From positions 32,001 through 96,000 of the IMG/VR virus record IMGVR_UViG_3300026549_000043: a DNA stretch of 64,000 nt; one strand, given 5' to 3'. The notes under the pieces were generated by a model, which worked only from the letters and a program-made list of their open reading frames with translations, ran no database searches and was not told where the DNA came from. How positions within the stretch are numbered: position 1 is the stretch's first letter; every line of letters starts with the position of its first letter. Of this stretch, positions 10,059-64,000 are shown in pieces. A program made the position numbers and the translations under genes. Source of the DNA: a virus. Its lineage: Duplodnaviria; Caudoviricetes.

Positions 10059-10222
10059 TGGAAAAGAATGATAAAGAAAAAGTGATACCATCTAAGCCTG
10101 ATAAAAATGGATGGTTCAGGTGTCAGGTTTGTAATCAGATGGTAGGGAATGATAATTATTGTAAGAATTGTGGTCAGAGGTTAAAAGATGGATCTTGGAA
10201 AAAAATTCGAAGCTTTTTTTAA
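10058..10222 (+). CDS. Small zinc-ribbon protein (54 aa; not in ORF track)
   Basis: CQVC...CKNCGQ; TAATG coupling to upstream gene. Confidence 0.65.
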   Translation: MEKNDKEKVIPSKPDKNGWFRCQVCNQMVGNDNYCKNCGQRLKDGSWKKIRSFF

Positions 10223-10655
10223 AAAAAATTGGATAGATACTGTACCAGAATCATTTATTTATAGATTAAATGACCAGATGTCTGGTTATATGGGTTCAAG
10301 CAATATTAGTGATTTTATTTGTTATAAAAAGCCTGAGTTATTTTTAATTGAGTGTAAGGCCCACGCCGGGAATACATTCCCCTTCTCAGCTTTTAGGCAA
10401 TATGAGGATCTTTCTCACTGATCTGACTTAGAAGGAGTTCATCCTGGAGTAATATTATGGCTATATGACCATGATGTTATCCTTTGAATACCAATAAAAA
10501 CTTTTATGAAATTAAAATCAGAAGATAAAAAATCTTTTAATATAAAATATTTAGGTAACCCAGATTATGAAAATGTTATAATTCCAACAAAGAAATTAAG
10601 GACTTTCTTGGATGGTGATTATTCAGTTTTAATAGATTATTATAAGGAGAAGTAA
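10188..10655 (+). CDS. recU: RecU-like Holliday junction resolvase (2 in-frame TGA)
   Basis: GKKFE, SDF, IECK motifs; reading TGA at 10419 and 10485 as Trp extends the frame to TAA 10655, abutting the next ATG at 10656. Confidence 0.8.
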
Positions 10656-11213
10656 ATGATAAATATAGATAGGTCAAAATTAAAAGTCGAATATGATAAG
10701 ATTAAATCTTATCTTAAATATTACGATGAATATGGAGCTCCTTTAGTAGAAGAGTACTCTAAAGATTTAGATGAAAAAGTAGATGGTATAAATAATTACT
10801 TAAACCAATGTAGACAATATAATTTAGAATTTGATGTAGTATCTTTACAAAGAATAGTCATTGACCTATCTTCTACCATTTATTATACTTCTTCCAGATT
10901 GGAACAGGTTGAAATTCTGGCTGATATGGCCAAGCTATCTTATAAGGATAAATACAACGAGGCATATACTTCTAGACAGGGTGCTAGTAGGCAAGAAGAT
11001 AGAAAATATACCTCAGATCAATTAAGAGCCTTAGCCGACCAAGAAGCTGTTGAAGAAGAGTTAGTACATTTTATTTATGATCATTGTGCATCTATTTTAA
11101 AAGCTAAGATAGATGCTGCAAATGAGCTACTTAAATCATGTAGTAAATCATTGTCAGCTGAAATCACTTCAATGCAGGCAATGAATTATGTATCAAATAA
11201 GGCAGGTATGTAA
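10656..11213 (+). CDS. Helical protein, possibly UvsY-like recombination mediator
   Basis: Coiled-coil-like sequence between resolvase and nuclease; function is a guess. Confidence 0.4.
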   Translation: MINIDRSKLKVEYDKIKSYLKYYDEYGAPLVEEYSKDLDEKVDGINNYLNQCRQYNLEFDVVSLQRIVIDLSSTIYYTSSRLEQVEILADMAKLSYKDKYNEAYTSRQGASRQEDRKYTSDQLRALADQEAVEEELVHFIYDHCASILKAKIDAANELLKSCSKSLSAEITSMQAMNYVSNKAGM

Positions 11214-11950
11214 TGAAAGTATCTTATAGTCTACTAAACGCCTTTAATGCCTGTCCATTTCAATATAAATTAAAATACATTGATAAATTACAACCAAAAG
11301 ATGATTTAAGGCCAGATAATCCCTTATTTGTTGGCACTGCTTGCCATGAAGGCATTGAAAGTAGAGATATTAATCAAGCCTTGGAAAGTTATAAATCACA
11401 TTACCCTGAATTAAATTCTGAAAATGAATTTGAAATAGAAAAATTAAAAATAGTATTACCCAAGGCTATTTCTGAAATCCCCGAGTGTGAATTATATGAA
11501 TATAAACTAGAAGCTCCAGATGAATTTGTAGGGTATATAGATGGATTAGTTAAAGTTGATGATAATACTTATGACTTATTAGATTTTAAAACTAGTAATA
11601 ACGTCTCAAGTTATAAAAATAGTGGCCAAGTTCATATTTATAAATATTATTTTGAAAGATTAACTAATAATAAAGTTAGAGACTTATATTATGTATTTAT
11701 TCCTAAAGCTGATGAAAAATTAAATGAGAGTCTATCTAATAAAGAAAAGATATTAGAAGATTTAAAAAAGAAAGAAATTCATTTTGAAAAAATACCTTTT
11801 GATAAACAACAGGTAAATTATTTCTTTGCTAGAAAATCAATACTTGAGAAATCTAAAACCTTTAATAAAAGATATTCTTCTAAATGCAATTGGTGCCCTT
11901 TTAAAAAGTTTTGCAAATCAAATGGTTTAGATAAAAGCGAGCTGAAATAG
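11213..11950 (+). CDS. PD-(D/E)xK exonuclease, Cas4/AddB-like with Fe-S cysteines
   Basis: SYS...CP, GTACH, GYIDG...DFKT, Q...Y, CNWCPFKKFC. Confidence 0.85.
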   Translation: MKVSYSLLNAFNACPFQYKLKYIDKLQPKDDLRPDNPLFVGTACHEGIESRDINQALESYKSHYPELNSENEFEIEKLKIVLPKAISEIPECELYEYKLEAPDEFVGYIDGLVKVDDNTYDLLDFKTSNNVSSYKNSGQVHIYKYYFERLTNNKVRDLYYVFIPKADEKLNESLSNKEKILEDLKKKEIHFEKIPFDKQQVNYFFARKSILEKSKTFNKRYSSKCNWCPFKKFCKSNGLDKSELK

Positions 11951-12015
11951 TTTATTTCAGCTTTTATTTATTTTATAATAATAATGTAAATAAATAAAAG
12001 AGAGGTAAAGAAAAT

Positions 12016-12267
12016 ATGGTAAATCATGAATATTGGTTAGAAATATTTCCAAACGAAATAGCAAGCCACCCTTGGAAGGTATTAGTAACTGAGACTAGAA
12101 ATTATACCACAGTTGAAAATGTACTTTTAAGAACTGACCAAGAAGTTATAGATAAGGTAAGATCTTATCTTAGAAGATATGGTAAAGAGAATATAAAAAT
12201 TGGTGAACATGTATATTATGTAGGACCAAGATTTAAAAAAGAAATGTTATTAAATTTTGAGGAGTAA
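12016..12267 (+). CDS. Hypothetical protein
   Basis: Follows promoter and GAGGT RBS. Confidence 0.6.
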   Translation: MVNHEYWLEIFPNEIASHPWKVLVTETRNYTTVENVLLRTDQEVIDKVRSYLRRYGKENIKIGEHVYYVGPRFKKEMLLNFEE

Positions 12268-14858: not shown

Positions 14859-15053
14859 ATGAAAATTAAAGATTTATTCGAGTTGGTAGATGGTCTACCT
14901 AATTACATAAACGTTATCACTGATAAAGAAGATCATTTATATATTGGAGCTTATTCTAAAGCCCCAGAAGAAATAAAAGAATTAAAATTTACAAAAGCTA
15001 TATTAAATTATGATTCATGGGTAATTGTGGATCAAATATTATTCTATATTTAG
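14859..15053 (+). CDS. Hypothetical protein
   Basis: AAGGAG RBS after TGCTAAATT motif. Confidence 0.6.
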   Translation: MKIKDLFELVDGLPNYINVITDKEDHLYIGAYSKAPEEIKELKFTKAILNYDSWVIVDQILFYI

Positions 15054-15085
15054 TTTATATTTTACATTCCATAATGTATAATAAT
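15051..15085 (+). promoter_or_regulatory. Early/sigma-A-type promoter (TAGTTTA...TATAAT) upstream of the RNA island
   Basis: Member of a motif family seen more than 12 times in the window. Confidence 0.65.
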
Positions 15086-15104
15086 AATGTAATCAAAAAA
15101 AAGA

Positions 15105-15362: not shown

Positions 15363-15365
15363 CAT

Positions 15366-15463
15366 ACCTCGGTCTTACTGTCCGGTGACAGGAACGGTCT
15401 TCAAAATCGTAGGACACGGGTCCAACCGTGTTTATGAGGGCTCGACACCTTCCCGAGGTGCCA
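15366..15463 (+). tRNA. tRNA with UCA anticodon, Sec-like architecture (opal decoder)
   Basis: Acceptor ACCTCGG/CCGAGGT + G + CCA; D arm CTGTC-CGGT-GACAG; anticodon arm ACGGT-CTTCAAA-ATCGT; long variable arm ACACGG/CCGTGT; T arm GAGGG-CTCGACA-CCTTC; 98 nt. Confidence 0.85.
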
Positions 15464-15466
15464 TTT

Positions 15467-15541
15467 AGATCTTTGGTGTAATGGTAGCACAGCAGTCTCC
15501 AAAACTGTTAGGTGTGGGTTCAAGTCCTACAGGGTCTGCCA
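15467..15541 (+). tRNA. tRNA-Trp(CCA)
   Basis: Cloverleaf; anticodon loop CTCCAAA; GGTTCAAGTCC; ends GCCA. Confidence 0.93.
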
Positions 15542-15544
15542 GTT

Positions 15545-16200: not shown

Positions 16201-16203
16201 TAA

Positions 16204-22603: not shown

Positions 22604-23428
22604 ATGAACCCATTATTTAAAAAGCCTAAAGACGTCCGATTTGTAGATATGGCTATATGAATTGATAACAATATTTATAAAGAAGATTGTGATATGGATA
22701 AGGCATTTACTTACATGTATTTATTGGCCTATATGTTAGCTAGTAAAGCTAAGTATTTTAATACTATTGCTGACTATGATGGCTTTGCCTATTTCTTGGC
22801 CTACTCAACTTATAGTAGGTATAAGGATCAAAGTAAGAAGCCGGTAAAATCGGTATTAAATTATATGAAATCAATTATGTATTTCAGAAAGTTAACTTAT
22901 GACCGGGAAACATTCTGTGAAGTAATAAACCCAGAATATAATACTAATTGGGATGAAAATAAATATAAAAATAGTAGAATTAATTCCTTAGAATCTCAGA
23001 ATAGAACAAATTTAATTCAATTAAGTATTCAAGACATTTTTAGTGATATACCAAAAATAATTTTTAAAAATATACCAAAGATATATTTTAGTGATAATTT
23101 AATTAAAAATAATATTTATAAATCTACCCTATTATCACTATTAAGCAGCTATACATTACCACAAGAATTTCAAATAAAATTACAGAAAAAGTTAGAAGAA
23201 AAATCAACTTTTGATGAAGCTTCTTTCTATAAAAAACATTTAACCAAGGATATAATTTTATGACATTTACCAGATTCAATGGAATCAGTAGTCAGGCTGG
23301 TTATAAATAAAACGAACCAAGACTTAATTGAATTAATTCGAGGATTATCTGATGAAATAAAGGTTACTGAATATGATTTAGATCTAATGTTTAAATCGGC
23401 TTATGAGAATTGAAATGAAGAGTCCTAA
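22604..23428 (+). CDS. Helical protein, possibly a phage sigma-like factor (3 in-frame TGA)
   Basis: Continuous frame through TGA at 22658, 23261 and 23411; weak similarity to the gp55-type pattern. Confidence 0.45.
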
Positions 23429-23777: not shown

Positions 23778-23943
23778 GATAAGAGAAGATCTCAATTCTG
23801 TACCAGAGAAAAAGGAGTATTATTCGAATGTTTCTGAACGTTTAGATAAAATACTTAAATGATATATAAGTCAGTTAGAAATACAATATAATCAAATGTT
23901 AAATAAAAACACTAAGGATATTATGAAGGAGTTGATAAAGTAG
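23752..23943 (+). CDS. Hypothetical protein (1 in-frame TGA; not in ORF track)
   Basis: Fills the gap only if TGA=Trp; TAG overlaps the next GTG. Confidence 0.55.
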
Positions 23944-24272
23944 TGATAGGAAATATTAAAGAAGATTTAAGTAAATTAACTACCATTGATACTCTTTATA
24001 TTGGGAGACTTTTTGAAAAAATAAATTGATGTATTTCTGACTATGTGGAAGAAGCCTCTTTAAAAGGAGATAATCTAGTAGAAGTAGATTTTGGGTTTGG
24101 GAAGTTGTTTATTTGTATTGGAGAAGATTCAGTTAAATATAGTTTTAAACCTAGTAAAGAGTTAGATGAATCGGTAATTAATACCATAGTAGATGGAAGA
24201 AATAGTCTAACTTTAAACTTAGAAAAAAATCTTTCATCAAAAATTACAAACATATATAAGGACATGTTCTAA
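23943..24272 (+). CDS. Hypothetical protein (1 in-frame TGA)
   Basis: GTG 23943 with AAGGAG RBS, in frame with ORF 24045-24272. Confidence 0.6.
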
Positions 24273-25379: not shown

Positions 25380-26093
25380 ATGGTAAAAGACATATTGGTT
25401 TCAGACCTTTTAAATGAAAGGGCTATGGAGTGGGATGTTAAGAAGGATTCAGAATTAACTAATACTATCCTTAGAGACTTGGTTGATACTCTAGAAGCTA
25501 ACCCAGATAGATTATATTTATGTGCTAATGAAATCGGATATACTGAGAGAGCTTTTATTTTAAAGTTTAGTGATGATTGAAAAGCTTTCATGAACCCAAT
25601 CTTCCAGGTAAAGGATAATCTAAAATTAGTTAGAGAATATAATCCTATAGATAAAAAACAATATATTATTCCTAGATATACCGATGTGACTATATGCTAT
25701 CAAAATTCCATGGGTAAAGTTGAAGCTGTAAAATTTAATGATTCAGCATCAGCTATAGTGTCTCATGCAATGGATGTTTTGGAAGGGTTACAAACTTCTG
25801 ATTATGGATTAGAAGTCGTTGAGGAATTTGATACCGCTTCGCCAGAAGAACAGGCCCAGGTATTGAATGAATATTTAAAATCTTTAAATAAATTTAAAGA
25901 AGATTTGGATTCTGATTTAAGTAATTCTGATGAGGAAACTAAAAAAGAATGGGATGGCTTTAAATTTATGAAAGCCGTTTCGGATGGAAAGGTAGAATTA
26001 TATAAGCCAGAAAATAAATCTCCAATAATAAATAGAAAACAAAGAAGATTTTTTGAAAAATTGGCTAAAAAATTTAGAAGGAGAAAAAGATAA
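25380..26093 (+). CDS. Peptide deformylase-fold protein with degenerate active site (1 in-frame TGA)
   Basis: DLVDTL...LCANEIG...FMNP...IPRY..VT..Y...G......F...A..VSHAMDVLEG follows the PDF pattern; ORFs 25380 and 25590 are in frame across TGA 25578. Confidence 0.7.
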
Positions 26094-28927: not shown

Positions 28928-29776
28928 ATGGGTAAAATTTATACTTATATTCATAAAGGTCAACAGAATAGTAAATGTAAAACAGTTGACCTTTGTTTAT
29001 TTCTTAATGATGGATGAGAACTTGGTTGACCAAATATTCATGATCACATGGTTAAAATGAGTAAGAAAGCCGCTGAAAAATTAAGTGATTTGAAAGAAAA
29101 TAATTATGAAGATTATGTAAAATTCCAAGAAAATAAAAGTAAAAATGTGTCTAAAGGTTTACTTAAATTTTGATCAGATGTTGCAGATAAAGAGTATATA
29201 AAAAATCGTGAGGAAAAGAAGCAAGAATCGAGAGATAATTGAACACCTGAAGAGCGTGAATTATATCATAATAGGATGTCTGAATCAGCCAAAAGGGATA
29301 GGGCAAATACATCCCAAGAAGAGTATCATAGAAGAAGTGTTTTAGCTACTGAAACGAAGAAGAGAAACGGTACTATGAACACATCATCCTATGAAAATAT
29401 TACATATGATTTATTAAGAACAATTTATGGTGATGATGATATCATCTATGATGATTATGTAGATGATAGATACTCAACAAAATGCGATTTCTATATCAAA
29501 TCATTAGATATATTTATTGAATTAAATATTCATCCATCTCATAATAATCACCCGTTTGATGAGAATAATGCGGATGATTTAAGTTTAGTAGAAGAATTAA
29601 AATCTAAAGGTGATAAATGATCGAACATGATTTTAGATGTTTGATGTAGACGTGATGTCGAGAAATTCAATCAAGCTAAAGATAATAAATTGAATTATAT
29701 CTTAGTGTATCCAAATAACTTTGATAATTTTATACTCGCAATAAAGGAGAATAGAATATGAGATTTAGTGAAATAA
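28928..29776 (+). mobile_element. Free-standing homing endonuclease, Vsr/PD-(D/E)xK-like (7 in-frame TGA)
   Basis: Continuous frame with TGA=Trp; S.YE...CDFYI....FIELN..H motif; NDGWELG motif; lies between the nrdD halves. Confidence 0.8.
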
Positions 29777-30469: not shown

Positions 30470-33400
30470 ATGAGGAAAAAAAGCTTAAGTACTAATATTT
30501 ACAAGATAAAAGAATTATTATCAAAATATATCAAAGAGGGTGATTATATTATTGAAGACAATTCAAGGTATAATTCCATTAATGATTTATTATCTTCTTG
30601 GTATATTGAGTGTATAATAGATGAAGAATTAACTCCTAAGGGAGAAAAAGTAATATATGGATTACCAGCGGTAAAAGGCAATGAAGATAGTATTAAATAA
30701 AGATTATGGTGGATTTTCTGTTTCAGATTATGTGAGAGATGCTTTAGATCTTGAAGATAATTATTCTGTTGACCGTAAAGATCCAAGATTAATAAAATTA
30801 ATCGAAGATTTTCCTGATAGATGTGATGGTACTTTTGCTACTTTAAGAATAGTAGAAATACCAGACGAAGCTACCGATTATTATATTATGGATTATGATG
30901 GCATAGAAACTATTATCTATGTAATAAATGGTAAGCTTTATTTTAAATAAGGCTAGGTGATTAAAATATTTTTAACTAATTCATTAAAATGGTGTTTAAT
31001 AATTTTGATTAGTATTATTTTATGTTTTATCTCTATAGGGGTAATAATAACTTTATTCCACCCGGAGCCAATAAAGGATGAAATAGAAGAAGCATTAGAA
31101 GAAATTACTAGAAAGAAGAGGAAAAAGAAATGAGTTACTACAGCAAAAGATACTTAAAAGAAAAATGGGAACCTTTAAAGTGGGATATGGAAGAAATTCT
31201 TTTAAACAATGATGATGATGACCGCATTGATGAAGAAAAGGTTAAGAGAGTTAGAAATGCAATGAACTACTACATTGATGCTATTAAGAAGGAGATAAAT
31301 AAGTGAGACTAATTGATGGAGATAATTTAAAGGATGAAATTCTGGGGATAATCTTCGAAAGAGGGCAGGAATCTAGTAAATATGAAAATATGATAGAAAT
31401 TGGAGCCATGAGGTATTCTGATGTTGAATATGAAAATGGTATTGATGATGGCCTAGAAATCTGTTACAGTAAGATAGATTCAGAACCAACTATTAAGGCT
31501 ATATCTCTTAATTGGATAAATAATTATAAAAATACTTCAGGGCCAATAACTAAATATATTTTAAATCGAATGATTAAAGACTGGGATAGTATTCATGGTT
31601 AAATGCATTGAATGTCCATATTTAAAAACTAAAATTAATAAAATTGGCATAGTATATACAAATTGTGTTTATTCAAATGGAAAAAAGACTTTATATATTT
31701 ATAATATAGATACTAATAAAGAAGCTCTGCCTAAAAATTGTCCTTTATTAAAAAATATTAGTGATAGTGGGGTAATATAAATGAGGCTAATCGATTCTGA
31801 TAAACTAATAGTTGAAGTAGTTCACAGCGGTAATATTGTCTGTCTACCGCATATTTCATTAGAACAATTAAATACTGCACCAGTAATAAAGGCAATCCCT
31901 ATCGAGTGGATAAAAGATGTTTGGTTAAAAAGGCTTTAGAAGAAGTTACTTCTAAGAAGAAAAGGAAGGGGAAATAATTTCTCCTTCTTTTAGTTTATTT
32001 ACTGTTATTTATAGATTATAATAATAATGTAAATAAAGAGGTAAGAGAAAATGAAAAATAGACAGTGGGATGAATTAGATACAATAGAGACTATTTGTGA
32101 TGATGTGTATAATGCTTCTTTTATAAAGAAAATTGAAGAAGTGAGTAAGTGGTGTATAATTATTGGTTTAATTTTACTCTTCATATATTTGTATTTATAA
32201 GGTTTGGTTATTAGGAGAAAGAAAATGAGTAAATCTGTAATGATAATTGATACACCTAGAGATTGTTGTGATTGTCCTTTTGGTACTATGGCTTTTGGTA
32301 AAAGTGTTTGTTTACTAGATGAAGGTAATGGAATTGAATGTCCATTGAAACCATACAAAGATTTCGTTCCTATTGAGTGGATTAAATCAAAGATAGATGT
32401 AATACTTGGTAGCTACCCAGATGGAAATGAAGAAACTGAAATTCTTTGCAAACTGTTATATGACTGGGAGAAAGAAAATGAGGCTAATTGACGCAGATAG
32501 ATTACTAAAACCAAGCTTTACAGATATGTTTGATAAGCCAGTGAAAATGGATATGTTCAGTCGATATGCTATCGAAAGCCAACCAACAGTAAAAGCAATT
32601 CCTATTGAGTGGTTAATAAACAAGTGTAATGAAGCAGACAATATGGGAATGGGTATTGATGATTGGTCTGTGAAAGATTGCTATCAATTAGTGTTAGAAG
32701 CTTGGGAGGAAGAAAATGAGAAGTAGACAGTGGAATAAGTTAACAACTGAAAGATGTAAGCAGTTTTGTAATGAATGGTGTTGCCCTTGTAATGATGGTT
32801 CTACTGGTTGCTATGCTAATGACTTCTATGAGATGCTTTGTGATAGCTCTACTACTGCTCATATCTTTAGAGGTGAAGAAGATCTCTTTGATAGATTACA
32901 AGAAGAGAGTTATAACCGAATGGTTGAAAGTTATGATGATCCTGAGATCTATGAAAAGTTCTGTGAAAAGTTTGTAAAAGAATTGGGAGAGTAATGAATG
33001 GCTGCAATAGATTATGGAGTCCTAATAATTAAAGATGGCAAGGTAATAAATACTGATCTATTTCCGGTATTTACTATTGATAAATATACAATTGACTTTT
33101 ATAAGCATTCATTAACTATTTATAAAAATAATGAACTTGTAGAAAACTATTTCTTTAGTGATAAATACTCTTATTATTTAAATACAGTAGTGGGTAAAAT
33201 AAAAGTTCGAACTTTATCTCGTAAGAATCTCAGCAGATTTATTACTAGAATAAATGGGTATACTATTATATTCGGATATGGAATTGATCCCAATAAGAAC
33301 AAAGGATATCAAAAGCATATAATGAACGATTATGGGTTTGATAGGAGAGAGAAACGTATTATTTCTAAGTATTTATGGGAGAAAGAAAATGAGACTAATT

Positions 33401-36400
33401 GATGCTGATGTATTCAAAACAGAGTATGAAAATCTAATAACTTGGGTTTCTCATAGAGCAGAAAAGGCAAGATTAAGAGAATTTATCAAGGATATTCAGA
33501 ACCAACCAACAGTAAAAGCAATTCCAGTTGAATGGCTGAAAAGGTATGAAATTATCAAAGGACAAGAAGTACGTTTACAAGATGCTATAAACGAATGGGA
33601 GAAAGAAAATGAGACTAATTGATGCTGATGAATTAAAATATCGAACTGATAAAACTGGGTTTGGGTATATTATGGCATGAGAAGTCCATGGCACTCCCAC
33701 AGTTCCAGCAATCCCTGTTAAGTGGATAGAAAATTATATTAAACGGTATTATGGCACCGGTGACTTAGTATATCCTGAAGGATTTTTAAAAGAATTAGTG
33801 ACATGGTGGAGGTATGATGAAAATGAGTATAAAGAGAATACTTCTCAGACTGATTAAGAAAATCAAGCACAAAAGATTCTGCAGGTTAAATGGGTATAGA
33901 TGCCCAGATTGTATATATCACGAATGGGTGTGGGAAGGTGCAACATTTAGAGGAAATAAATGTAGATATGGGAGATAAAGAAAAATGGAAATTAATGAAT
34001 TATTAGAAAAAGGTTATAAAGAGTATTCTGTTGATGCTGAGTTTGATCCCAGTGTACATAGAATGTTCCAGAAGAGATTTGATGATGAATATGGTAAACA
34101 GTACTTTATTACAGTATATACTTTTAAGCCTTGGACACACCCATATACTCATGAAGAATTTATCAGTGAACCTGAGTTTAGAGTACAATTATATTCTTCT
34201 AATGACCATAAACCATTAAACTTAAACTTCTTCTCTGGTTGGTCTATTGATGAAGTAGAAGATTATGTTTGGAAAATCTTTATTATGTGCCAAAGTAACG
34301 GAAAGACATTGAGAATGTTTGACTATTATGAAAGGTGGGAAAAAGAAAATGAGACTAATAGATGCAGATAGAAAGCCTAATAAAATATATAAGGTGTATG
34401 CTGCACCTTATGCCTCTTATTATGAAGGCTATATAGTTAATGAATTTTGTATAAAGGAAGATGCAGAAAAATTAGCATTGGACTTAAATAATAATCTCCT
34501 GAGACAATATAATTATGAGGTTATCGAAGAAGATGAGCCTTATGAAAATTACCCAACAGTCGAAGCCATTCCTGTTTGGTATATAATTAGGTGGTATGAG
34601 AAAAGGTATAAATTGGGTTCAACAGTTGCAGATGATTGGGAGCGTGACTTTCTTAAAGAAAAAATAGTCAAGATGCATGATGACTTCAAGAATGAGAAAT
34701 ATCTTGACAATAAACAAGAATCAGAGAGATTTGCTCAAATGATAAAAGAAGTTATTGAGTTATATAACGATTGGGAGAAAGAAAATGAGACCAATGCTGA
34801 GTGTTAAAGTAATTGATAGTGATACTGGTATTGAGTTAGATAAAGTATATAAATTGATTGCACCAACAAAATTTGATTATGAGTTTGTCGGTGATGAAAT
34901 AATGTATAGAATATATAGATGGAATTTTGCTTACTCAATAGCAGATGATTATGCTTTAAAATTAGAAGAAAAGATGGAGAAAGAAAATGGATAATGAAAT
35001 GATTACCCACGAGCAGGTAATGGAGTACTGTAAAAACCGTAATTACGCATTGGTTGATAAAGAGTATTTACATATTATTCTTGGTGATAAGCCTATGAAA
35101 TTATTTGGGTTACCGATAGAAGATGTAATGAGAATTGTAGAGATATATAAGTATAAGGGAGTTGTACCAACCACTGACTATACAGAAGGCTTTGAAGATG
35201 GGATGAATTATATGAAAACCTATTATGAAAAGGTTATGGACGAATTAATAAAAAATGTTATGAGGTAATTAGATAATGAGACTGATCGATGCAGATGAAC
35301 TTGTAAAAATCTGTAGAAAAGGTTGGAGATTATTTGGCTTCAGTGATGAGAAAATATGCCATTGGGTTGATGAATATGACATAAATGCACAACCGACTAT
35401 CAAGGCGATTCCTATTGAATGGATTCTTAATCACCCTAAGTTTCCGCATAAAAATGAAGATAGAAAAAAGTGCATTTTAGATATGATAGAAGACTGGGAG
35501 AAAGAAAATGAAACTGATTAACTCCAATAAGTTTAAAGAAAAATTAAATTATCTTAACTATGAGTTATATAATTCTCACCCAATAGGTGAATTATCTAAA
35601 GAAGAAAAAGATACAGTTAGTTGGTATATTTATCACATCAATAAAATGGTTGATAATATGTCTATGGAAAGTGCTGTTCCTGTTGAGTGGATAAAGAAGT
35701 ATATAGATAATAGACTTATTAAATATGGTGATACTTGGACTTTTATAAACTGTATGATAAATGAATGGGAGAAAAAGAATGGATAAATTAGATGAACTAT
35801 TTGATGTATTACAGAAGATAAAAGATAAGTGTAACTTACACGGCAAGGCAACAAATTGGAAATGTGATACTTGTCCCTTTGGCCTTAATGACCATTTGTT
35901 CTATTGTCAATTCATTCAAATCGCTGATTTATTCTATAGAGAACCAGCATTATGGGACTTAAAGAAGTTAAGAGAGATATTAAATGAAGGTCATTTTTAG
36001 AATAAATGCTGACAATTTTAGAGATTATCTAGAAAGGGCTACTAGGTTAAAAGCAGCTTGGGAAGATTCTCAAGATCTTGATTGTATCATTGTCTCAAAA
36101 GATGTAGACGTATTTTTAGTTGACCCTGATAGTGAAATTGAAATTATGCCACAGCTTCCAGACTACATTTCTGAAGAAGAGCGCATTAAGGGTAATATAC
36201 CTATTGAATATTGTTTTGGTTGGAAAGATTGTTTAGATACAATAAAGGGGAATAAAGAATGAAAGTAGTAAATGCAGATAAGTTAAAGAGTTATGCCTTG
36301 AAATCAATTCATGATGAAAAGATTACGGATTCATTTAGAACTGGTGTCGAGTTTACCCTAGGTTTATTAGATGCCTTTGAAATTGATGATGCTATTCCTG

Positions 36401-38022
36401 TTTCTTGGCTTATAGATAAGGCTCAGGAAAAATTGATTGATAGAGAAATCACCGGTGCTGAAATGACTTTTATTAAGAGTCTAATTGAAGAATGGAGAAA
36501 TGAATAGTTTATAAACCTATATAAAGAATTATATAATATAAATATAATAAAAGAGGTAATAATTATGAACAGTATGTACTTTGGTAAAAAAGAATTAGAA
36601 GCTATGTATGAATTGATTCGTTTCTTAAATGAACAGTCATATAAGTCTGAGTATTATAATGATGTTCATATTTTCCCAGCTGATTTAGGAGCTTTTGTTG
36701 TAGAATGGGCTCAAGTACCCTGGGATCATACTTATGGTGGCAGCTTTAGGTATGTAGATGAGAATCAAACTGTATGTACTGAATTGAAATATCCAGATGA
36801 TACCTTCGGTTATGTCGAAGATCCTGGAGAAGCCTTAAATGAGTGGCTAGAAGAGAATCCGGGCTGGACCAAAGATGAATGGGGATATTGGCATCATGAA
36901 TAGAGAAGAACTCTTAAAAAGAGGCTATACTGAATTTGGTGGTAAAGATACAGGTAATGTACGTACTAGTATGTTCCAGAAGCGTATTGATGATCAAAAA
37001 GGTAAGAAGTATTTTATTACCGTAACGTATAGTATCTTTAACATTAATGGAAAATCATTTGAAAGCTTTGAATGTGAAACTCAATTCAATAATAGGGTCG
37101 GCACGAAGAATATTGTTTGGTTGTCTGTTGAAGATATAGATAAAGTAGAAGAAGAAGCCGAGCTACTCTGGAATGTTCTAAAAGGAGAATATTATGAAGA
37201 ATATTATGAAGATTTTTAATTCTAAAGACTATAGCTTAGAAATGTCGCCTTTAAAAGAAGGTATTGACTTTTACTACACTTTCCATTATGTCTTTAATGG
37301 AAATAAGTTATGTTTCGTATTAGCCGATACTTATGAAAAGGATTATACTAATAACCCTTGTAAGTCAAAGAAGTGGAATAGATATAATCGTTTAAGAAAG
37401 TCCCTAAGACCATTCTGGGACACTAATAAGCCGGAATCATTAGAAGAAAGAGTTGAAGAACTGATTAAAGACAAAGAAGAAATAGAAAAAGAGCTTAAGG
37501 AGGATTAATATGGGATTAGACTTTACAATTTATAAGAAGAAAGTAAATGAAACTTGTGAACAGGCTTGGAATGCTATAGTTAGTGAATGGCGTGAATCAG
37601 GTTATACTACTACCTCTGAAAGAGAGTTAGCCTATGGTCGTAAAAGCTGGGAATTAGTCTATGAATTAGTACCAGATTATGGAGACTATTTTGATTCTGA
37701 TGACCCAATCATTTCTAAAGAAAGATGGGATTCTTTAATGAATAAAATCTCGGAAATTGGCCCTAAGCTTGATAAGATCTGGGATGCTTTTAATAAAGAA
37801 GAAAAGGCCCCGGATGATTATCCTGAATTTATCTTTGGTGACGAAGAAAAGAAGCTTATTGCTGAGTATGAATACTGGTATGATAAGACTTTCGATGTAG
37901 CCCCAACTTTAGGATATTTCTTCTCTGTGGGTTATATTATGGATTTCTGGAATGCCAATGACCGTGTTCAGAAAGTTTTTGAAGACCCAGAGTGGGAAGT
38001 TAGAGCGAGCGTGAGCTATTAG
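30470..38022 (+). other. Array of ~30 short, translationally coupled accessory ORFs (e.g. 30470, 30681, 31303, 31595, 31781, 32225, 32478, 32716, 32998, 33389, 33609, 33985, 34349, 34785, 34987, 35276, 35508, 35984, 36259, 36565, 36896, 37510)
   Basis: Overlapping stop/start codons; promoters at 30405, 31991 and 36505; repeated MRLIDAD...PTVKAIPIEW...WEKENE family. Confidence 0.75.
32465..35520 (+). repeat. Dispersed junction repeat TGGGAGAAAGAAAATGAGACTAATTGA
   Basis: Copies at 32465, 33376, 33596, 34336, 34772 and 35495; 33375-33410 and 33595-33630 are identical over 36 nt. Confidence 0.85.
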
Positions 38023-38762
38023 TGAAGTATTTTATTGTAGCTGATGTTCATGGTTTCTATAATGAAATGATTGAAGCCCTTGAAAAAGAGGGCTTTGATA
38101 AGACTAACCCTAATCATACTTTTGTCTCCTTAGGTGACTTATTAGATAGAGGTGAACAACCCAAGGAATGCTTAAAGTTTGTTAACAGTCTTGAAAGAAA
38201 GATCTTAATCGTAGGGAATCATGAACTCTTAATGGATGAAATGGCCGAAAGAGGTTACCCCAGAGATTATGATTTTAAAAATGGTACTCTCAATACGGCC
38301 AGGATCCTAACCAATACTAAGCCAGATGAGATCTGCTCAAATATGAAAGATAATGAACTTTATCAGACATACCGTAAAGAATGCAAGTTTTATCATGAGG
38401 TTGGAGACCATATCTTTGTTCATGGTTGAATTCCTTGCATCTATGCTGGAAAGTACAGTATTACTCCTGTAGCTTATAAGAAAGATTGGAGAGATGCTCC
38501 TTTAGTAGAATGGATTGACTCAACCTGGATCAATGGTATGTTAGCCTGGGCTGCAAAAATAAGAGAACCTGGAAAGACAATCTGGTGTGGACATTGGCAT
38601 ACTTCTTATGGCCATGCTAATTTACATAACTATGGAGTTGAGTTTCCGCACGAAAAAGGTGAAGAGGCACATTTCTCCCCTTTCATAGATGAAGGGATTG
38701 TAGCTATGGATGCTTGTACTGCCTATTCAAAAAAAGTTAATTGTAAGGTCATAGAAATTTAG
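38022..38762 (+). CDS. Metallophosphoesterase, Ser/Thr phosphatase-like (1 in-frame TGA)
   Basis: DVHG, GDLLDRG, GNHE, FVHG(TGA)IP, GHWH, D.C.AYS. Confidence 0.88.
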
Positions 38763-43266: not shown

Positions 43267-43962
43267 ATGACCAAAAATGAATTATTAAAACTTGATTGTT
43301 TTTATGACAACGAATATTTACAACAATATGTAGATTTAGTTAATTCTAATATCAACACTGAGTATCAAAGTGGAATTACTGAATGCCATCATATTATCCC
43401 TAAGGTTTATTTTAAATATAAAAAGTTAGAAGTTGATAATAGTAATAGTAATTTAGTTAATCTAATTTATTGTGACCATGTATTAGCTCATTGTTTGTTA
43501 GCCTTGTCCTATAAAGATAAATATCTAATTTCAGCTAGTATAGATGGAGTATATGGAGTTTTAAATAGTTTTAATATTTATAAAACTTTAGAAGAATTCG
43601 TGAAAGATTTTCCTGAAGTTAAAGATATTTTAAAATGTAATCATTTTGTATCAGACGAGCAAAAGAAAAAATTATCTAAAATAAGCTCTAATTCAAATTG
43701 ATATAATAATGGGATAAAAGAAACTTTTACTATATATAAACCTATTGGTGACGAATGAATACCTGGTCGATTACCCTTTTCTGAGAAACAAAAAGAAAAA
43801 TTCAGAAATAACAGTTTAAAATGTCATTGGTATAATGATGGTAATAAAAGTGTTTTCGCTAAAGAATGCCCACCTGGTTTTATTCCTGGAAGAATAGTTA
43901 CTGATAAATTATTGGCTTCTAATAAAAGAAATGCTCAAAAAAGAAGAAAAAAGATAAAATAA
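43267..43962 (+). mobile_element. Free-standing HNH homing endonuclease (2 in-frame TGA)
   Basis: ECHHIIPK...NLVNL...HVLAH; C-terminal repeats (TGA)YNNG...(TGA)IPGR and WYNDG...FIPGR. Confidence 0.85.
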
Positions 43963-47800: not shown

Positions 47801-48661
47801 ATGGCTAATAATAATAAATCTTTAACCACCCGTAAATTAGAATATGATAAAATTGTTGAATTTAGAAAATTACATAGTATCGACTATCTAAATAATATAG
47901 CTAAGTTAATGGGTTATACAACAATATCAGAGGTATTTGATGATGGTTGGCCTATAACAGAACTAAAAAAATATAGTGATGAAGCCAGTAAATTAACTTG
48001 AGGGGCTGATATTCCAAATAGATATTGAAAATTTATGTGTAGAGAAGTTTGTAATGAATATTTAACTGAAAAATATGGGTCACCTAAAGATTACTTCAAT
48101 ACAGAAGTTTTTATTAAACGGAGAGTAACAAATATAGGTAACACTATGGAAACTAGGTATGGGTATAGAAATCCTGGCCAATCACCTGAACACCGTGAAC
48201 TTATGAAAAAGGGAAGTAATTGTAAAAATCCCTTTTCATCTGACTCTTTTAAATATAATTCATATATTCGTGGTAAAACGGTATTGCCAGAAGATAAAAT
48301 AGCATATGATGAATATAGAAAAAAGGTTGATAAGCTCACAGATATAAATAAACAAAATTTACCTTTTACAGGTATATGCTATTATACAGAATTACCTATT
48401 TTTAAATATGATGGTAATAAAACAATTAATAGAAATGATTGGAATATGGCTACAATAGATCATAAAATTTCTGTTATAGCTGGTTTTTTAAGAGGTATTT
48501 CTCCTGAAATTATTTCTAGTGTAGATAATTTATGTTGATGCTCAAAGTATTTTAATAGTTTCAAGGGTTCCAAATGTGAAGATGAAATTAGGCTGTCAGG
48601 TCTGATCGAACGATTTAAGGAGGTTATTAAAAAATACTATGCAAGTAGTGAAGGTGACTAA
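47801..48661 (+). mobile_element. Free-standing HNH endonuclease between the split-intein halves (3 in-frame TGA)
   Basis: CYYT...TIDHKIS...NLC(TGA)CS..FNS.KG; ORFs 47801 and 48035 share a frame. Confidence 0.85.
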
Positions 48662-53600: not shown

Positions 53601-53940
53601 GGTAAAAGATTCTGAAAGAGAGTCTATTATTGTACCTAATTTAAATAGATGCTTCGTGTGTGGAACTGATAAGGATATACATCTACATGAGGTATTTTTT
53701 GGCAGTTCGAACCGTAAAAAATCCAAGGAAGATAAAATGCTAATTCCATTATGTGGAATTCATCATAACCTATCTTCACAAGGAATTCATTATAATAAAG
53801 TTTTAGATAATAAGGTAAAGAAGCAGGCTGAAAAAATTTGGATAAAAACTTATTGTGATGAAAATCTTTCTAAAGATGAAAAGATTGGTTTATTTATTAG
53901 CCGTTATGGAGTGAATTATCTGGATGAGGATGAAATATGA
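53581..53940 (+). CDS. HNH-fold (Ref-like) nuclease
   Basis: CFVC...HLHEVF...IPLC..HH. Confidence 0.65.
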   Translation: MSGKRDKVKDSERESIIVPNLNRCFVCGTDKDIHLHEVFFGSSNRKKSKEDKMLIPLCGIHHNLSSQGIHYNKVLDNKVKKQAEKIWIKTYCDENLSKDEKIGLFISRYGVNYLDEDEI

Positions 53941-59209: not shown

Positions 59210-62200
59210 ATGAATAATATTTTAACTGAGGCCATCGGCGAAGATGGTTTAAACTTCAGAGATATTTATAATAATTTAATGGAATCAACACATAATTTTA
59301 CTGAAGAATCTGGTGATTTTAAATTTGATTCTAGTTTCGAAGCTAGCTTAGCTGAGAATATTTTAAAGGATAAATATTCAGAAGTTGAAATTAAACCATT
59401 AGACATGGATGACGAAAATGAATTATTTTATACAGTACTTTATAAAGATCCTATTATTAAAGAGGATTATAAAGATTTAGATTTTCAAGATAATAAAAAT
59501 CCTGAGGGTACTCCATTAGGTAGTTTTGGTGAATCATTACTTTCTGAAGGACAGAAACCAGCCCATTGGGCAGTTATTAAATCTTCAGGTGGTAGAGGTA
59601 AAAATGGTTGGATAACTAATATCTCTGTTGAGGCTATTCCAAGTGAAATTAAAGACATGAATAGCCTTAAAGGATTTAGTACTTGGGGACCTAATAATCA
59701 ACATGTATCAAATAGATATAAGGCTGATTCTCTAGGTATATTTTCAACCAAAAAAGAGGCTCTAGAAAAAGTAAAAGAATTATTACGTAAAGAGCCTAAC
59801 TATAGAGCCTTTGGAACCAACGCTGAAGAAGTAGAATTACTCGAAAAAATTATTAAGTTTGGCTCTAAATGGCAGGTGCAATCTGAGAAAGGTAAAAATA
59901 TGGGAACTTATAATACTAAAAAAGAAGCCGAAGACAGATTAAAACAGGTAGAATATTTTAAACATATAAATGAAGGTATTTTTAGTAATATTGGTAAAAC
60001 CGCAAAAATAGCTATGTTAGCTAAATGGGTTTCTAATCATGCTGATAAGGTTCAATATTGCTCTAAAAGGGATCAAGATCGCATATTAGAATTATTTAAT
60101 GATATTAAACAGTATTCTAAGAATATTGACATTTTTGATAATACTGAATTTGAAGATGGCGCTGTTGAAGATATTTTAGGCAAAATTGAAGACTGCTATG
60201 AAGATATAAAGGATATTATTAAAAATTCACAAATACATGAAAGTTTTGATTCTGATACTGTAGAAATTTCTTCAAAAATAAAAAATATTAATAATAAGAT
60301 TATTTCACTTTTAAATGGAAGTGATTTAATAAATGAAGACCGTAAGTCAGATATTGAATCTACCCTTTTAGATGGTGAACCTACTTTCGCTGAATATATG
60401 GAAGATAATTATGGCATTGATATCTATGATGATGAAATTGCCGAGAACCCTGATGTAGAAGATCATTACTTAAATGAGTATGAAAGCTATTTAGATCATT
60501 TATATGATTTAGATGATGAAAGTAATTATGATGCAGCCCACGCTGCTGAGTGGATGGAAAGATATCCTCATGGTTACTATAATAATGAGAATGACTATTG
60601 CGTTGATGATGAAGATGGTAGCCCAGATATTGATTTTGAAGAAGACGATGTTGACCCAGATCAATTCTTACAGGCTTACGAGTTAACTAAAGACATGGAC
60701 GAAGATGAAGCTTGGGAATCTATTTCTCAAAGATTCGATAAGGAAAAAGATCTTGGATTCTGGGGACCAGATGAAGCTGAAAGAGGTAAACATGAGGTAT
60801 TTGATTACTGGAAAGAAATTTCTTTAAAGGAAGACTTTGATCCAGAAGATCTTGTTATTGAATGTCCTCAATGTTTAAATGATTTAACTTTTGTTGGCTA
60901 TCAGGGTGATTTAATTGAATTTAAATGTGATAGCTGTGAAAATTATTTCTATATGGATCCTAATACTAAAGAATTACTTTCACCTACTGAACTAGATAAA
61001 AGATATTTAACCGAATCTACCAATGATCTTTATTATTTTAAGATTACAGGCCCAGTAAGAAAGCAGCGTGGGTGGTCTCCTGATGATGAACCTACAGTCT
61101 TTGTAACTGGAATCTGTGATGAATTAAAGGGTAGCAGAGGTTTTAGAGATGGTACTCACGAATTCCGTGAAAGTGATTTAGAACGTGTTGGAGCTAAGGT
61201 CGGTGATACCGTAGCCTGTCATGTTGATTGGGAAACAGATTATGATGGTCATCTAGAGTTAGAAGTAGACGTAGTCAAAAAAGTAGATGAAGTTTTAAAA
61301 GAAGCTAAGAATAAGAATTATAGAGTAGAGCTTTATTATTATGACAATAATAAACCTGACGATGTAATTTATTTCGAAAATACAAAAGCAGCTTATAATT
61401 TCTGTAATAATAAAATTTCAGATAATGCAGATTATGATGATGGCCTTACTGGTATTTTAGTATTTAATGAGGCTAAAGATAAATTATTAAATACCTGGCA
61501 AAATGGTAGCCGAGGATGGGAAAATAAATCTAAGGCATTAACTGAAGAAGTAAACTTACAGCCTGGAGACGTTAAGTGGTCTTGGTGGCTTCATAGATAT
61601 TTAATTTATAAGGGGTTTGATAAATTTTCAAATAAATATGAGTTTGAGGACTTTGGAGATGATTTATTTGACCTTACGGCAGAAGAAGTTTCAAAATTAA
61701 AGGATAAATATGTTAGTAAAAATGAATCTTTAGATGAAGCAAAGACTCAAGAGTATGAGTATACACTTTATAACACGTTTTCAAAGAATTCGTTCCATAA
61801 GAAAGTAAAGTGCTCTTCTAAAGAAGAAGCAAAGAAGATCGCTGATGATGAGTTAAAGAAACTCCAAAAGAATGGACACTTTAAAGACTTTGTTGTTAAA
61901 GGTGTAAAAGAGCTACAAGAGTCTTTAGATGAAGCCAAAAACGATACACTTAATGCTGACATCTGAGATGAAAATAATGAATTAAGACCTGAAGTTAGAG
62001 AAAAATTAAATTTAATTGTAGAAAAATTTAAAGATAATTTATCTGAAGATGGCGTAGATCTAGATATATCAGATATTATTATAGTAGGATCTAACGCTAA
62101 TTATAATTATACTGACAAATCAGATATTGATTTACATATTATAGCTAACTTAGATATTTATAAAGATAAAGAAGATTTAGCAAAAATTGTGTATAATGCT

Positions 62201-62329
62201 TATAGGCGTTTGTTTAATGATAAATTCGACCCTACCATAAGAGGGCATGAGGTTGAGTTGTTTGTAGAGTCGAATGAGGATGATAATGATAATAATATTC
62301 CTGATGAGGTAGAAAATAACGAAGAATAG
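59210..62329 (+). CDS. Large acidic late polyprotein ending in the N-half of a Pol-beta nucleotidyltransferase (1 in-frame TGA)
   Basis: Reading TGA 61964 as Trp adds GSNANYNYTDKSDIDLH...VELFVE; many (I/L)xE motifs; TGCTAAATT at 59177. Confidence 0.75.
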
Positions 62330-62345
62330 CAATAAGGAGAAGGAT

Positions 62346-63098
62346 ATGAAGGTTAATAAAATTACCAAAAATATTTCTGAATCAACATCTAATTCAAACG
62401 GAATTTATTCTTTAAATACTGGGTGGGTAAAGAAACCAGTAAAGGATGATATTCCAGAAGTAGATTTAGAACCTGATTTAACTGAGTGAAGAGACAGGGC
62501 CAAGAGCTGTAATTCTTTAGAAGATATAAATAGTTTTATAGATGATATTTATATCTTAAGACAGAATTCCATTATGAATGATGGAGAATATGGAAAAGGG
62601 AACTTGATTTTTAAAGAAATTAGAAATGAAGGCATATTACAAGAATTGAAAGATAAAAAGGTTAATTTAGAAAATAACGAAATGAGTATAAAAGAAGGAT
62701 TAAAAGATTTTTCTAATGATGTAATTGAAAAACTACTTACTAAATATTCAGATTGTTCAAAGGATGAATTAGATGATGTCTGGGATGAGATCGTAAGAGA
62801 TTATAACGATACTGATTTAGCTGATGAAGTATGTGAATTATTAGATATTAGACTTGATGATTTATATAGTGAATCATTAAAACCTATAAAAGAAGAACCA
62901 TTAGATTATAATGAAAGTGATATTTTTAAACAAAAAAATGAAGCCTGTATCAAAGAATATAGGCAGTGAGCTGGATTATCTGATGATGAATTAATCACTG
63001 AGGATAAAATAAATGAATGAGCTTTAAACCGTGTAAGCTGTAATAATAATTATGATTATAATGATTTAAAAGAAGTATTATGCGGTAATAATAAATAA
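62346..63098 (+). CDS. Probable C-half of the nucleotidyltransferase (3 in-frame TGA)
   Basis: AAGGAG RBS; SNGIYSL..GWVKKP...LRQNSI..DGEYGKGNLIFKEIRN. Confidence 0.6.
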
Positions 63099-63123
63099 GG
63101 AAAGATTGGGGAAATAGAATATT

Positions 63124-64000
63124 ATGAAATTAAAGGTTAAGAGACCAAAGAAATTGGTAGAATCAACTATTAATGAAGCTACCCTAGAAGATACTATTAA
63201 CGCTGCTGAAAAACAAATTGAAAACCCAGAAGTAGCTAGTTATAATTCTACTGGCCAGATTGAACAGGCTTTAGATAGAGCCCTCAAGGTTGCTGAGAGA
63301 ATGAAAAGAACTGGTGGTAATAACTATACTAATGTTTTACTTATTGGTGGTGCTGGTACTGGTAAAACTTCAGCAGTAAGAGACTGAGCTGCAGCTCATA
63401 ATATCAACTTAGTTATGCAAAACACTTCAACAATGGATGAAACAGACCTTACAGGTGTAGTAGCTAGAAGTGCTGAAGGAAACTCAACGGTTAAATTAAG
63501 ATCCGACGTTTTAAGAGGATTGAATGAACCTAGATCAGTATTATTTTTAGATGAATATAATAGAGGTAGAAGCTCAGTTAGAGGAACATTATTAACTTTA
63601 ATTAATGACCATTTAATTGATACTGGTACAGACCAGGAATCAAATATTAAGGGATTATCTGGTAAATTAGAATTAAAGAATATGTTATTTACCATTGCTG
63701 CTATTAACCCGGCTTCAGGTGAATATACTACAGATGAATTAGACCCTGCCGAAATTTCTCGTTTTAGAAGAATTGAAGTTAAGGCTGATAAAAAACATCT
63801 ATTAAATAATGTTTTAATTCCAAAGCTTACAAAACAGGCAGAAAATGGTACTGAAGAAGACCAGGAAATTATTGCCGGACAGATTAACCTAGCAACTAAG
63901 CTTTTATCTGATAAATCATTCCAGTTTGATAATGAAGAAGAAGAAAGACTTGGTTATCAGAAATTCGGAAGAGATTATACTCCATTAAGTCCAAGATCAT
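63124..64000 (+). CDS. MoxR-like AAA+ ATPase (1 in-frame TGA; 3'-truncated by window)
   Basis: GGAGTGKT, then after TGA 63385: LFLDEYNR, AAINP, LDPAEISRF. Confidence 0.85.

Follow-up and report, generated by a model that had tools for sequence, protein, structure and literature searches.

Sparse and uneven reading of TGA as tryptophan in a 139-kb phage genome that carries a likely suppressor tRNA

Introduction

Published work describes gut phages that read TGA as tryptophan (Trp) rather than stop while infecting Firmicutes and Bacteroidetes of standard genetic code, and in which TGA accumulates outside the replication machinery (Borges et al., bioRxiv 10.1101/2021.08.26.457843). In the Agate phages of that study, whose genomes measure 154 +/- 27 kb, the proteins that prefer TGA are a group I intron endonuclease whose ORF interrupts an early gene, a tail protein and a membrane protein of the lysis cassette. 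A standard-code relative of Agate uses TGA for 4 of its 146 stops (108 are TAA and 34 TAG), so that depletion of TGA precedes recoding; suppressor tRNAs were detected in 35% of the TGA-recoded genomes, and those that went undetected were predicted to be non-canonical (bioRxiv 10.1101/2021.08.26.457843). Later work with phage-borne tRNAs of anticodon UCA, here written tRNA(UCA), found that 13 of the 13 tested inserted Trp in an Escherichia coli extract, and that the strength of release factor 2 (RF2) limited UGA suppression in cells (Seki et al. 2025, PMC12636597). The present analysis follows up in-frame TGAs and a tRNA(UCA) in the genome of a tailed phage, IMG/VR record IMGVR_UViG_3300026549_000043, and above all in a stretch of 64,000 nucleotides (the window) that corresponds to bases 32001-96000 of the 139,874-bp contig. 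Coordinates are window positions unless they are marked as genome positions.

The explanation that best fits the data, to which a probability of roughly 0.7 can be given, is that TGA has been partially reassigned from stop to Trp throughout a clade of phages, through a phage suppressor tRNA, in a host of standard code and at a cost for every TGA. Partial recoding of stop codons in gut phages has already been published, and this phage is a clear example of it, not a new phenomenon. An earlier note on the window had proposed a sparse, uneven and recent or conditional recoding; the conditional part restates the published model of TGA-recoded gut phages.

In-Frame TGAs and Their Reading as Tryptophan

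Open reading frames (ORFs) were called permissively, with TGA open and the longest ORF taken, and a TGA was counted as internal when it lay at least 30 codons from both ends of its gene. By this count positions 10188-64000 hold 39 in-frame TGAs in 23 ORFs, 19 of them internal to 10 genes; the earlier note had counted more than 25 in about 15 genes. The remaining 20 lie close to one or other end of their ORF, which leaves their reading ambiguous. The TGAs at 13484 (codon 2 of an over-long ORF) and 48603 (in an N-terminal extension) are artefacts, and those of ORFs 15017-15277 and 15303-15575 are suspect because these ORFs overlap the tRNA region. The whole genome has 87 in-frame TGAs, and the 47 internal ones stand against 307 internal TGGs, making TGA 13% of internal Trp codons. 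Clearly, the number of in-frame TGAs is far above chance. A comparison of coding density, which the earlier note had proposed, points the same way: long-ORF coverage rises from 0.727 to 0.808 when TGA is opened and to 0.746 in a control with TAG opened, and the gain is thus specific to TGA. Moreover, Pfam or PHROG matches continue across TGAs in RecU, a peptide-deformylase-like protein, Metallophos, AAA_5, PHROG 36119, the terminase and the portal.

The local contexts that had been quoted for a Trp reading were all located, with the TGA of FVHG-TGA-IP at 38427, that of NLC-TGA-CS at 48536 and that of VRD-TGA-AA at 63385, while the repeat units TGA-YNNG (43699) and TGG-YNDG (43828) belong to one ORF. 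Read-through also restores abutting genes, as had been claimed: the TAA of recU (10188-10655) finishes at 10655, and the ATG of the next ORF begins at 10656.

Alignments with homologues give the codon its meaning. Relatives were sought in IMG/VR by way of the phosphoesterase and the clamp loader, and four whole related contigs (G001, G002, G003 and G005) were retrieved; the amino acids at TGA columns were scored from tblastn alignments, and only the 27 sites lying inside alignments were counted. At 16 of these the relatives have Trp (TGG or TGA), at 7 phenylalanine or tyrosine and at 4 something else. The FVHG-TGA-IP column holds Trp (TGG) in 11 of 12 IMG/VR relatives and tyrosine in one, with FVHGWIP intact in 10. 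In the reverse comparison, the TGAs of relatives fall on a Trp of this phage in 13 of 25 cases for G002, 15 of 26 for G003 and 6 of 17 for G001. Among 69 aligned cells at TGA columns, glycine occurs once and cysteine never, which rules out genetic code 25 (TGA as glycine), cysteine and selenocysteine. A further case is codon 218 of a papain-like peptidase, a TGA that forms the second W of NSWGxxWG, a motif of the C1 family. From these alignments and the Pfam matches that span TGAs, the codon almost certainly stands for Trp, as had been proposed.

Sparse and Uneven Use of TGA

The low share of TGA is out of step with the rest of codon usage. In a contig of 31% GC, the A-ending member takes 0.68 of lysine, 0.85 of glutamate, 0.59 of glutamine, 0.90 of leucine TTR and 0.84 of arginine AGR codons, against the 13% of TGA, so the description of the recoding as sparse holds. 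TGA is therefore used far below what mutation pressure allows, which points to a cost for each TGA, as one would expect of a host in which UGA still serves as a stop.

The use of TGA is uneven as well, although not in the way first described. Heterogeneity between genes is real (p = 0.0005, from permuting TGA and TGG labels among all Trp codons). The earlier note had seen it in core genes that use only TGG, and the codon counts do agree for PolA (2306..5047, 7 TGG and no TGA), NrdD (27100-28851 and 29758-30216), GyrB (41233-43143), GyrA (44025-46037) and the UvsX/RecA-like recombinase (57678-58700); these and the TGA-bearing window genes treated below are all on the plus strand. The contrast of the core replication genes with the others (0/31 against 29/285) reaches only p = 0.09, and since a seven-Trp gene would be free of TGA some 40-50% of the time at a share of 9-13%, it is weak on its own. 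The heterogeneity comes instead from intervening or homing endonuclease ORFs and from lysis-type enzymes, two classes that were set after looking at the data. The first comprises the ORF that splits nrdD (28928-29776, internal TGA/TGG 5/0), the HNH endonuclease in the gap between gyrB and gyrA (43267-43962, 2/1), an intervening ORF (47801-48661, 3/2) and an HNH-containing ORF near the capsid gene (genome 2608-4758, 2/9); pooled, 12 of their 24 Trp codons are TGA (50%), compared with 29/316 elsewhere (Fisher p = 2e-6). The second comprises a CHAP protein (genome 126506-127699, 3/6) and the papain-like peptidase (genome 124325-125140, 3/2), with TGA in 6 of 14 Trp codons (43%, p = 0.0015). In the other 172 ORFs the share is 9% and the residual heterogeneity is marginal (p = 0.03).

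Gene Ends and Stop/Start Junctions

All 178 ORFs called under code 4 (TGA as Trp) end in TAA (140) or TAG (38), which extends to the whole set what had been noticed for the core genes. TGA is largely abandoned as a terminator. Within 10 codons of ORF ends there are nevertheless 12 TGAs where an arithmetic estimate expects about 3.6, and five of the TGAs (29759, 31131, 31304, 36260 and 53938) form [A/G]TGA overlaps with the next start, each after a purine-rich motif resembling a Shine-Dalgarno (SD) sequence. All five junctions are on the plus strand. At 29758..29761 (ATGA) the second part of nrdD begins with an ATG that shares bases with the TGA of the ORF before it; the ATGA at 31130..31133 follows AGGA and looks like a stop/start overlap of the standard code; at 31303..31306 (GTGA) the following ORF starts at a GTG that overlaps the TGA; a further ATGA stands at 36259..36262; and the ATGA at 53937..53940 follows GAGGA and has a TAA directly behind its TGA. 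Such junction TGAs would be former stops or stops that are still leaky, with read-through adding 0-7 residues. The one at 29759 cannot be an efficient stop, since it ends an ORF that already needs six earlier read-throughs.

It had also been claimed that apparent TGA ends are soon backed by TAA or TAG. They are, within 0-7 codons, but this is no closer than chance provides in so AT-rich a sequence (about 0.07 TAA or TAG per codon, estimated from base composition). Selection for back-up stops after terminal TGAs was accordingly considered and rejected, as the distances match chance.

The Probable Suppressor tRNA(UCA) and Its Neighbourhood

A likely decoder of TGA is encoded at 15366..15463 on the plus strand. 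This tRNA is 98 nt long with its encoded GCCA, has the anticodon loop CUUCAAA, and was found with Rfam, with ARAGORN at a 90% threshold (-ps90), by folding and with a covariance model. By default ARAGORN reports only a tRNA-Trp(CCA) and a tRNA-Gln and misses the tRNA(UCA); lowering the threshold to 90% adds exactly one gene, the tRNA(UCA). Its minimum free energy structure is a clean five-arm cloverleaf (-35.8 kcal/mol), with an acceptor stem of 7 bp, a D stem of 5 bp whose loop has 4 nt, and a long extra arm, and covariance model R1 gives it 63.8 bits. The A1-U72 pair and G73 are as in bacterial tRNA-Trp. The Rfam tRNA-Sec model (for selenocysteine tRNAs) matches it at 39.3 bits, short of that model's gathering score of 47.

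The loop of the extra arm reads G-U-CCA-A. Similar tRNAs occur in close relatives (L040:12042-12140, L041:1529-1625 and L057:6168-6265), and all four, that of this phage included, have UCCAA in this loop, the string that forms U33-C34-C35-A36-A37 in the anticodon loop of tRNA-Trp. With this string required, a pattern scan of IMG/VR returned 70 places, 63 of which were called as tRNA(UCA). When the string was not required, 46 distinct long-arm tRNA(UCA) candidates were found, and TCCAA was present in 23, at a chance of about 2.5% per candidate, with the CCA unpaired in 20 of the 23. Across 55 phage tRNA sequences, RNAalifold predicts a fifth arm whose 4-bp stem closes a 7-nt loop N-U-CCA-A-N in which U-CCA-A is invariant, and the stem pairs covary, with 28, 15, 11 and 13 double changes. 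Within this family the tRNA of this phage is divergent: its loop has 6 nt, its D arm resembles that of selenocysteine tRNAs and its T loop is odd; an exact 24-nt piece of it had no match in IMG/VR. The conservation suggests that the extra arm may act as a decoy anticodon arm, which would keep the tRNA a substrate of tryptophanyl-tRNA synthetase (TrpRS). No published description of this feature was found in the literature.

Only 3 nt downstream, at 15467..15541 on the plus strand, lies the tRNA-Trp(CCA), called by ARAGORN and scored at 60.1 bits by the Rfam tRNA model. Its D stem has a U11-A24 pair, which also characterises the Hirsh UGA suppressor of E. coli and occurs natively in the tRNA-Trp of Bacillus subtilis. 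By analogy, this tRNA may itself read some UGA.

The neighbourhood holds two other features. A tRNA-Thr(UGU) at 16953-17023, directly after the tRNA-Gln, scores 43.6 bits in Rfam and is absent from the ARAGORN calls. Between the tRNAs, 15545-16880 is a non-coding, GC-richer stretch of 1.3 kb in which Rfam recognises nothing at E <= 1. L040 and L057 repeat its opening ~40 nt (GGTTCTACACCGTTCC...GGGTAAATCC) immediately downstream of their tRNA(UCA), which suggests a putative large, conserved RNA linked to the tRNA cluster.

Relatives and the Age of the Recoding

The recoding is shared by phages that are only distantly related. At 45-53% amino-acid identity to this phage, G001, G002 and G003 are also recoded, gaining 0.15-0.19 in coverage under code 4. 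Rough TGA shares are 0.39 for G001, 0.29 for G003, 0.24 for G002 and 0.05 for G005, with 0.19 for this phage by the same rough method. At conserved Trp columns, this phage and G002 have TGG in both at 65, TGA against TGG at 9, TGG against TGA at 9 and TGA in both at 3, where about 1.7 would be expected if the two were independent. Near-independent TGA sites, together with a share near 14% in both phages, imply many gains and losses. The recoding thus looks clade-wide in these comparisons, and a standing balance would fit it better than a recent switch; the suggestion that it is recent finds no support, given that the relatives are recoded too and that sites turn over while the share stays low.

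Intact tRNA(UCA) genes were sought in G001, G002, G003 and G005 with ARAGORN -ps90, the Rfam selenocysteine model, the covariance model and a regular expression, and only a decayed copy in G003 was found. That copy (L033:2560-2655, minus strand, equal to G003:142560-142655) keeps its T arm, an extra arm with CUCCAAC and the 3′ side of the acceptor, and it has lost the 5′ side of the acceptor and has an altered anticodon loop.

TGA-Bearing Genes of the Window

The first TGA-bearing gene of the region encodes the RecU-type Holliday junction resolvase (10188..10655), with TGAs at 10419 (codon 78) and 10485 (codon 100). Both are spanned by Pfam RecU (residues 8-128) and PHROG 843 (residues 4-127), and the G002 homologue has tyrosine at codon 78 and Trp (TGG) at codon 100; a comparison of this RecU with solved structures gave no match. 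A gene of unassigned function (22604..23428) has TGAs at 22658 and 23261, at which (codons 19 and 220) six relatives have tyrosine and phenylalanine, respectively, and another at 23411, four codons before its end. In a small gene (23943..24272, TGA 24027) the relatives have phenylalanine, tyrosine or serine in the column. The peptide-deformylase-like gene (25380..26093) has TGA 25578 at codon 67, spanned by Pfam Pep_deformylase (residues 10-141); the column is variable and uninformative, with isoleucine or glutamine in relatives and arginine in the solved PDF2 structure.

The nrdD gene lies in two pieces, with Pfam positions 16-438 in 27100-28851 and 427-562 in 29758-30216. The ORF that splits it (28928..29776, 282 aa) has 7 TGAs and no TGG (29015, 29027, 29171, 29240, 29618, 29642 and 29759). 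It matched no Pfam or PHROG family, and its homologue in G002 has tyrosine at codon 231 and Trp (TGA) at codon 239. The FVHG-TGA-IP motif lies in the metallophosphoesterase (38022..38762, Pfam Metallophos at residues 1-193). The HNH homing endonuclease between gyrB and gyrA (43267..43962) matches PHROG 655 and 12434 and has TGAs at 43699 and 43756, whereas the intervening ORF at 47801..48661 (TGAs 47999, 48026 and 48536) has no Pfam or PHROG match.

Toward the end of the window, a 1039-aa protein (59210..62329) has TGA 61964 at codon 919, within PHROG 36119 (residues 904-1024), and a 250-aa protein (62346..63098) has TGAs 62487, 62967 and 63018, codon 48 being spanned by the same family (residues 7-113). 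PHROG 36119, of 247 positions, is in fact divided between the two, with positions 15-135 in the C-terminus of the first and 130-245 in the N-terminus of the second. The two ORFs are in different frames and are separated by TAG and 16 nt (61900-62700); a frameshift, a split of the gene or an error could each explain the division. Finally, a MoxR-like AAA_5 ATPase (63124..64000, continuing beyond the window edge) has TGA 63385 at codon 88, spanned by Pfam AAA_5 (residues 70-214).

The Genome and Its Probable Host

Essentially all genes of the contig are on the plus strand. Its ends (the first 1168 and the last ~1150 bases, genome 1-1168 and 138727-139874) are 93.5% identical with one gap. The overlap is imperfect, and therefore the genome unit measures about 138.7 kb; to judge from these ends, two variants of the capsid-gene region were probably joined when the assembly closed. 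The CheckV completeness of 83% may be an underestimate. The window carries the replication and nucleotide-metabolism module, with genes for primase, PolA, thymidylate synthase, clamp, clamp loader, RecU, SbcCD-like proteins, the split NrdD, phosphoesterase, thymidylate kinase, GyrB, GyrA and the UvsX-like recombinase. Elsewhere the genome encodes terminase, portal, tail fibre, a collagen-like protein, the CHAP protein and the papain-like peptidase.

The closest database sequences are unannotated phage fragments from human faeces, and the polymerases of Clostridium and Streptococcus phages match at 31-38% identity; a sequence search with the 4.8-kb gyrB-gyrA stretch found no match among annotated phages. 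The CHAP protein and the papain-like peptidase imply a walled host. At 54860-57360 a permease of the xanthine/uracil family adjoins a Bmp/PnrA-like nucleoside-binding lipoprotein, an unusual pair of auxiliary genes that would serve nucleobase or nucleoside uptake. The nearest bacterial homologues of the permease, in Erysipelotrichaceae, Solobacterium, Clostridia and Lactobacillus, are 32-36% identical (one archaeal metagenome-assembled contig also matches), and such a spread over assorted Firmicutes is too distant to name a host. As part of the explanation favoured here, the phage, at about 139 kb, would belong with the Firmicute phages of gut or rumen.

Proposed Mechanism and Alternatives

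One means by which TGA could be both sparse and uneven is competition at the ribosome. The host would be a standard-code bacterium with RF2, and full-length translation of genes containing TGA would depend on the suppressor tRNA of the phage, aminoacylated by host TrpRS, winning over termination. The resulting cost per TGA would hold the share near 9% in ordinary genes despite mutation pressure toward A-ending codons, and would let it reach 40-50% where output is weakly selected or best delayed, as in the homing endonuclease and intervening ORFs and the lysis-type enzymes. The few TGAs at SD-N6-8-[A/G]TGA junctions would be relics of stop/start overlaps or overlaps that still leak. Conditional recoding of this kind, with a suppressor tRNA competing against RF2 in a standard-code host, is a plausible fit to the data and to the published model. 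A bolder version can be advanced only tentatively: TGA might be truly two-valued and have long been kept at a low level by a balance of mutation and selection, read as Trp through a tRNA whose CCA-bearing arm would be the handle for TrpRS, while termination by RF2 would throttle or time the endonucleases and lysis enzymes and leaky ATGA stops would be tolerated.

Several observations weigh against a regulated, host-dependent recoding. TGA is not confined to late genes: its share is flat by genome region (12.7%, 12.0% and 15.4%), and RecU, a replication initiator, the peptide-deformylase-like gene and the phosphoesterase all contain it. With the endonuclease and lysis genes removed, early and middle genes have 9/149 (6.0%) and late genes 20/167 (12.0%, p = 0.08), a trend in the published direction and no more. 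The two enriched classes were drawn post hoc, and only two of the four intervening ORFs belong to an assigned family. The base following sense TGA, compared with that following TGG, has no significant bias (p = 0.20). Neither the RF-1 family (PF00472) nor the class Ib synthetase family (PF00579) was found in the phage genome, which thus has no RF1, RF2 or TrpRS gene. Lastly, G003 (100% complete, share ~0.29) has only the decayed tRNA copy and G001 (~0.39) has none, so that something else can support TGA reading in the clade.

Among the alternatives, it is very improbable that the TGAs are disabling mutations, assembly errors, or selenocysteine or glycine codons, even though the best match of the tRNA(UCA) is the Rfam tRNA-Sec model and its D arm is selenocysteine-like. 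Trp, phenylalanine or tyrosine occupies 23 of the 27 aligned sites, the 87 TGAs are spread over conserved genes including terminase and portal, and independent assemblies carry the same recoding. Glycine, cysteine, selenocysteine, pseudogenes and assembly errors were each rejected on the column counts (glycine 1/69, cysteine 0/69); selenocysteine decoding is contradicted in addition by an acceptor and T branch of 7+5 bp rather than 8+5 and by the sub-threshold Rfam score. A host that is itself of code 4 and lacks RF2, with the phage following it and the tRNA(UCA) topping up decoding, would account for the absence of RF1 and TrpRS genes from the phage and for relatives that use more TGA with no intact suppressor tRNA, and the tandem of tRNA(UCA) and tRNA(CCA) resembles that of Mycoplasma capricolum. 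Known code-4 bacteria of such GC content, however, write most of their Trp codons as TGA. Here TGA makes up 13% of Trp codons against 59-90% for A-ending codons in other pairs, SD-[A/G]TGA stop/start junctions persist, and lysis enzymes of CHAP and papain-like type suggest that the host has a wall, unlike Mollicutes; Borges et al. also predict standard-code Firmicutes or Bacteroidetes as hosts (bioRxiv 10.1101/2021.08.26.457843). A code-4 host is therefore unlikely. About equally unlikely is that the recoding is so recent that TGG has had no time to mutate to TGA. The low share would suit such an origin, as would its range among relatives from ~0.05 (G005) to ~0.39 (G001), and code changes have been described between genomes of more than 90% average nucleotide identity (Borges et al., bioRxiv 10.1101/2021.08.26.457843). 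Against it stand the recoded relatives at 45-53% amino-acid identity and the nearly independent TGA positions in G002 at a similar share.

The alternative that comes closest is that the unevenness has no regulatory meaning, a TGA that is slightly deleterious everywhere drifting up under AT mutation pressure only where selection is weak, as in selfish endonucleases and low-copy enzymes, or arriving with mobile genes from more heavily recoded phages. The top shares are indeed in intervening and homing endonuclease ORFs, relatives of higher share are possible donors, and neither a split into early and late regions nor a context bias is seen. It is a serious possibility but less probable than not: the CHAP and papain-like enzymes are enriched too, and the same classes, intron endonuclease and lysis cassette, are preferentially recoded in independent published data. 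Because both views expect an enrichment by class, they are hard to separate from sequence alone. The reading preferred here is still that of a clade-wide, partial reassignment by a suppressor tRNA under a cost per TGA.

Comparison with Known Systems

Standard annotation goes wrong on phages of this type, with code 11 breaking 10 window genes into pieces and default ARAGORN overlooking the suppressor tRNA. To the published model this genome adds numbers: a TGA share far under mutational expectation, a turnover of sites between deep relatives at low share, and a peak in ORFs of selfish endonucleases and in enzymes of lysis type. Together they speak for a standing cost of TGA. The linked suppressor tRNA, whose extra arm bears CCA, is also of possible interest for engineering UGA-decoding systems.

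Low-level read-through of UGA, of a few per cent, is familiar from the tRNA-Trp(CCA) of B. subtilis and from the E. coli Hirsh suppressor. The phage tRNA-Trp(CCA) shares their U11-A24 pair and could add to UGA reading; theirs, however, is read-through and not reassignment. The Mycoplasmatales and Entomoplasmatales, with their phages, resemble this genome in reading TGA as Trp under code 4 and in having a tRNA(UCA) in tandem with tRNA-Trp(CCA), and differ from it in using TGA for most Trp codons and in lacking RF2, whereas here TGA makes up 13% of Trp codons, ATGA junctions occur and cell-wall hydrolase domains are encoded. The tRNAs of Seki et al. 2025 (PMC12636597) are likewise phage-borne tRNA(UCA)s, although the text of that paper names no CCA-bearing extra arm. 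Jade phages have a "code change module" of RF1 and TrpRS that is not present in this phage.

The closest likeness, drawn by traits and not by phylogeny, is with the Agate clade. The two share their genome size class, low GC, TGA as Trp, genes that end mainly in TAA and TAG and seldom or never in TGA, and a suppressor tRNA that standard tools easily miss. The families with the highest TGA shares here, an endonuclease placed inside an early gene and genes related to lysis, appear to correspond to those favoured in Agate, and replication enzymes seem likewise largely free of TGA, although the contrast for core replication genes is not significant (p = 0.09). Unlike in Agate, TGA also occurs here in early and middle genes such as those just named for RecU, the replication initiator, the peptide-deformylase-like protein and the phosphoesterase, and the share by region is flat. 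The study that described Agate was published in Nat Microbiol in 2022, and it is to its model of gut phages recoding TGA in standard-code hosts that this genome conforms most closely.

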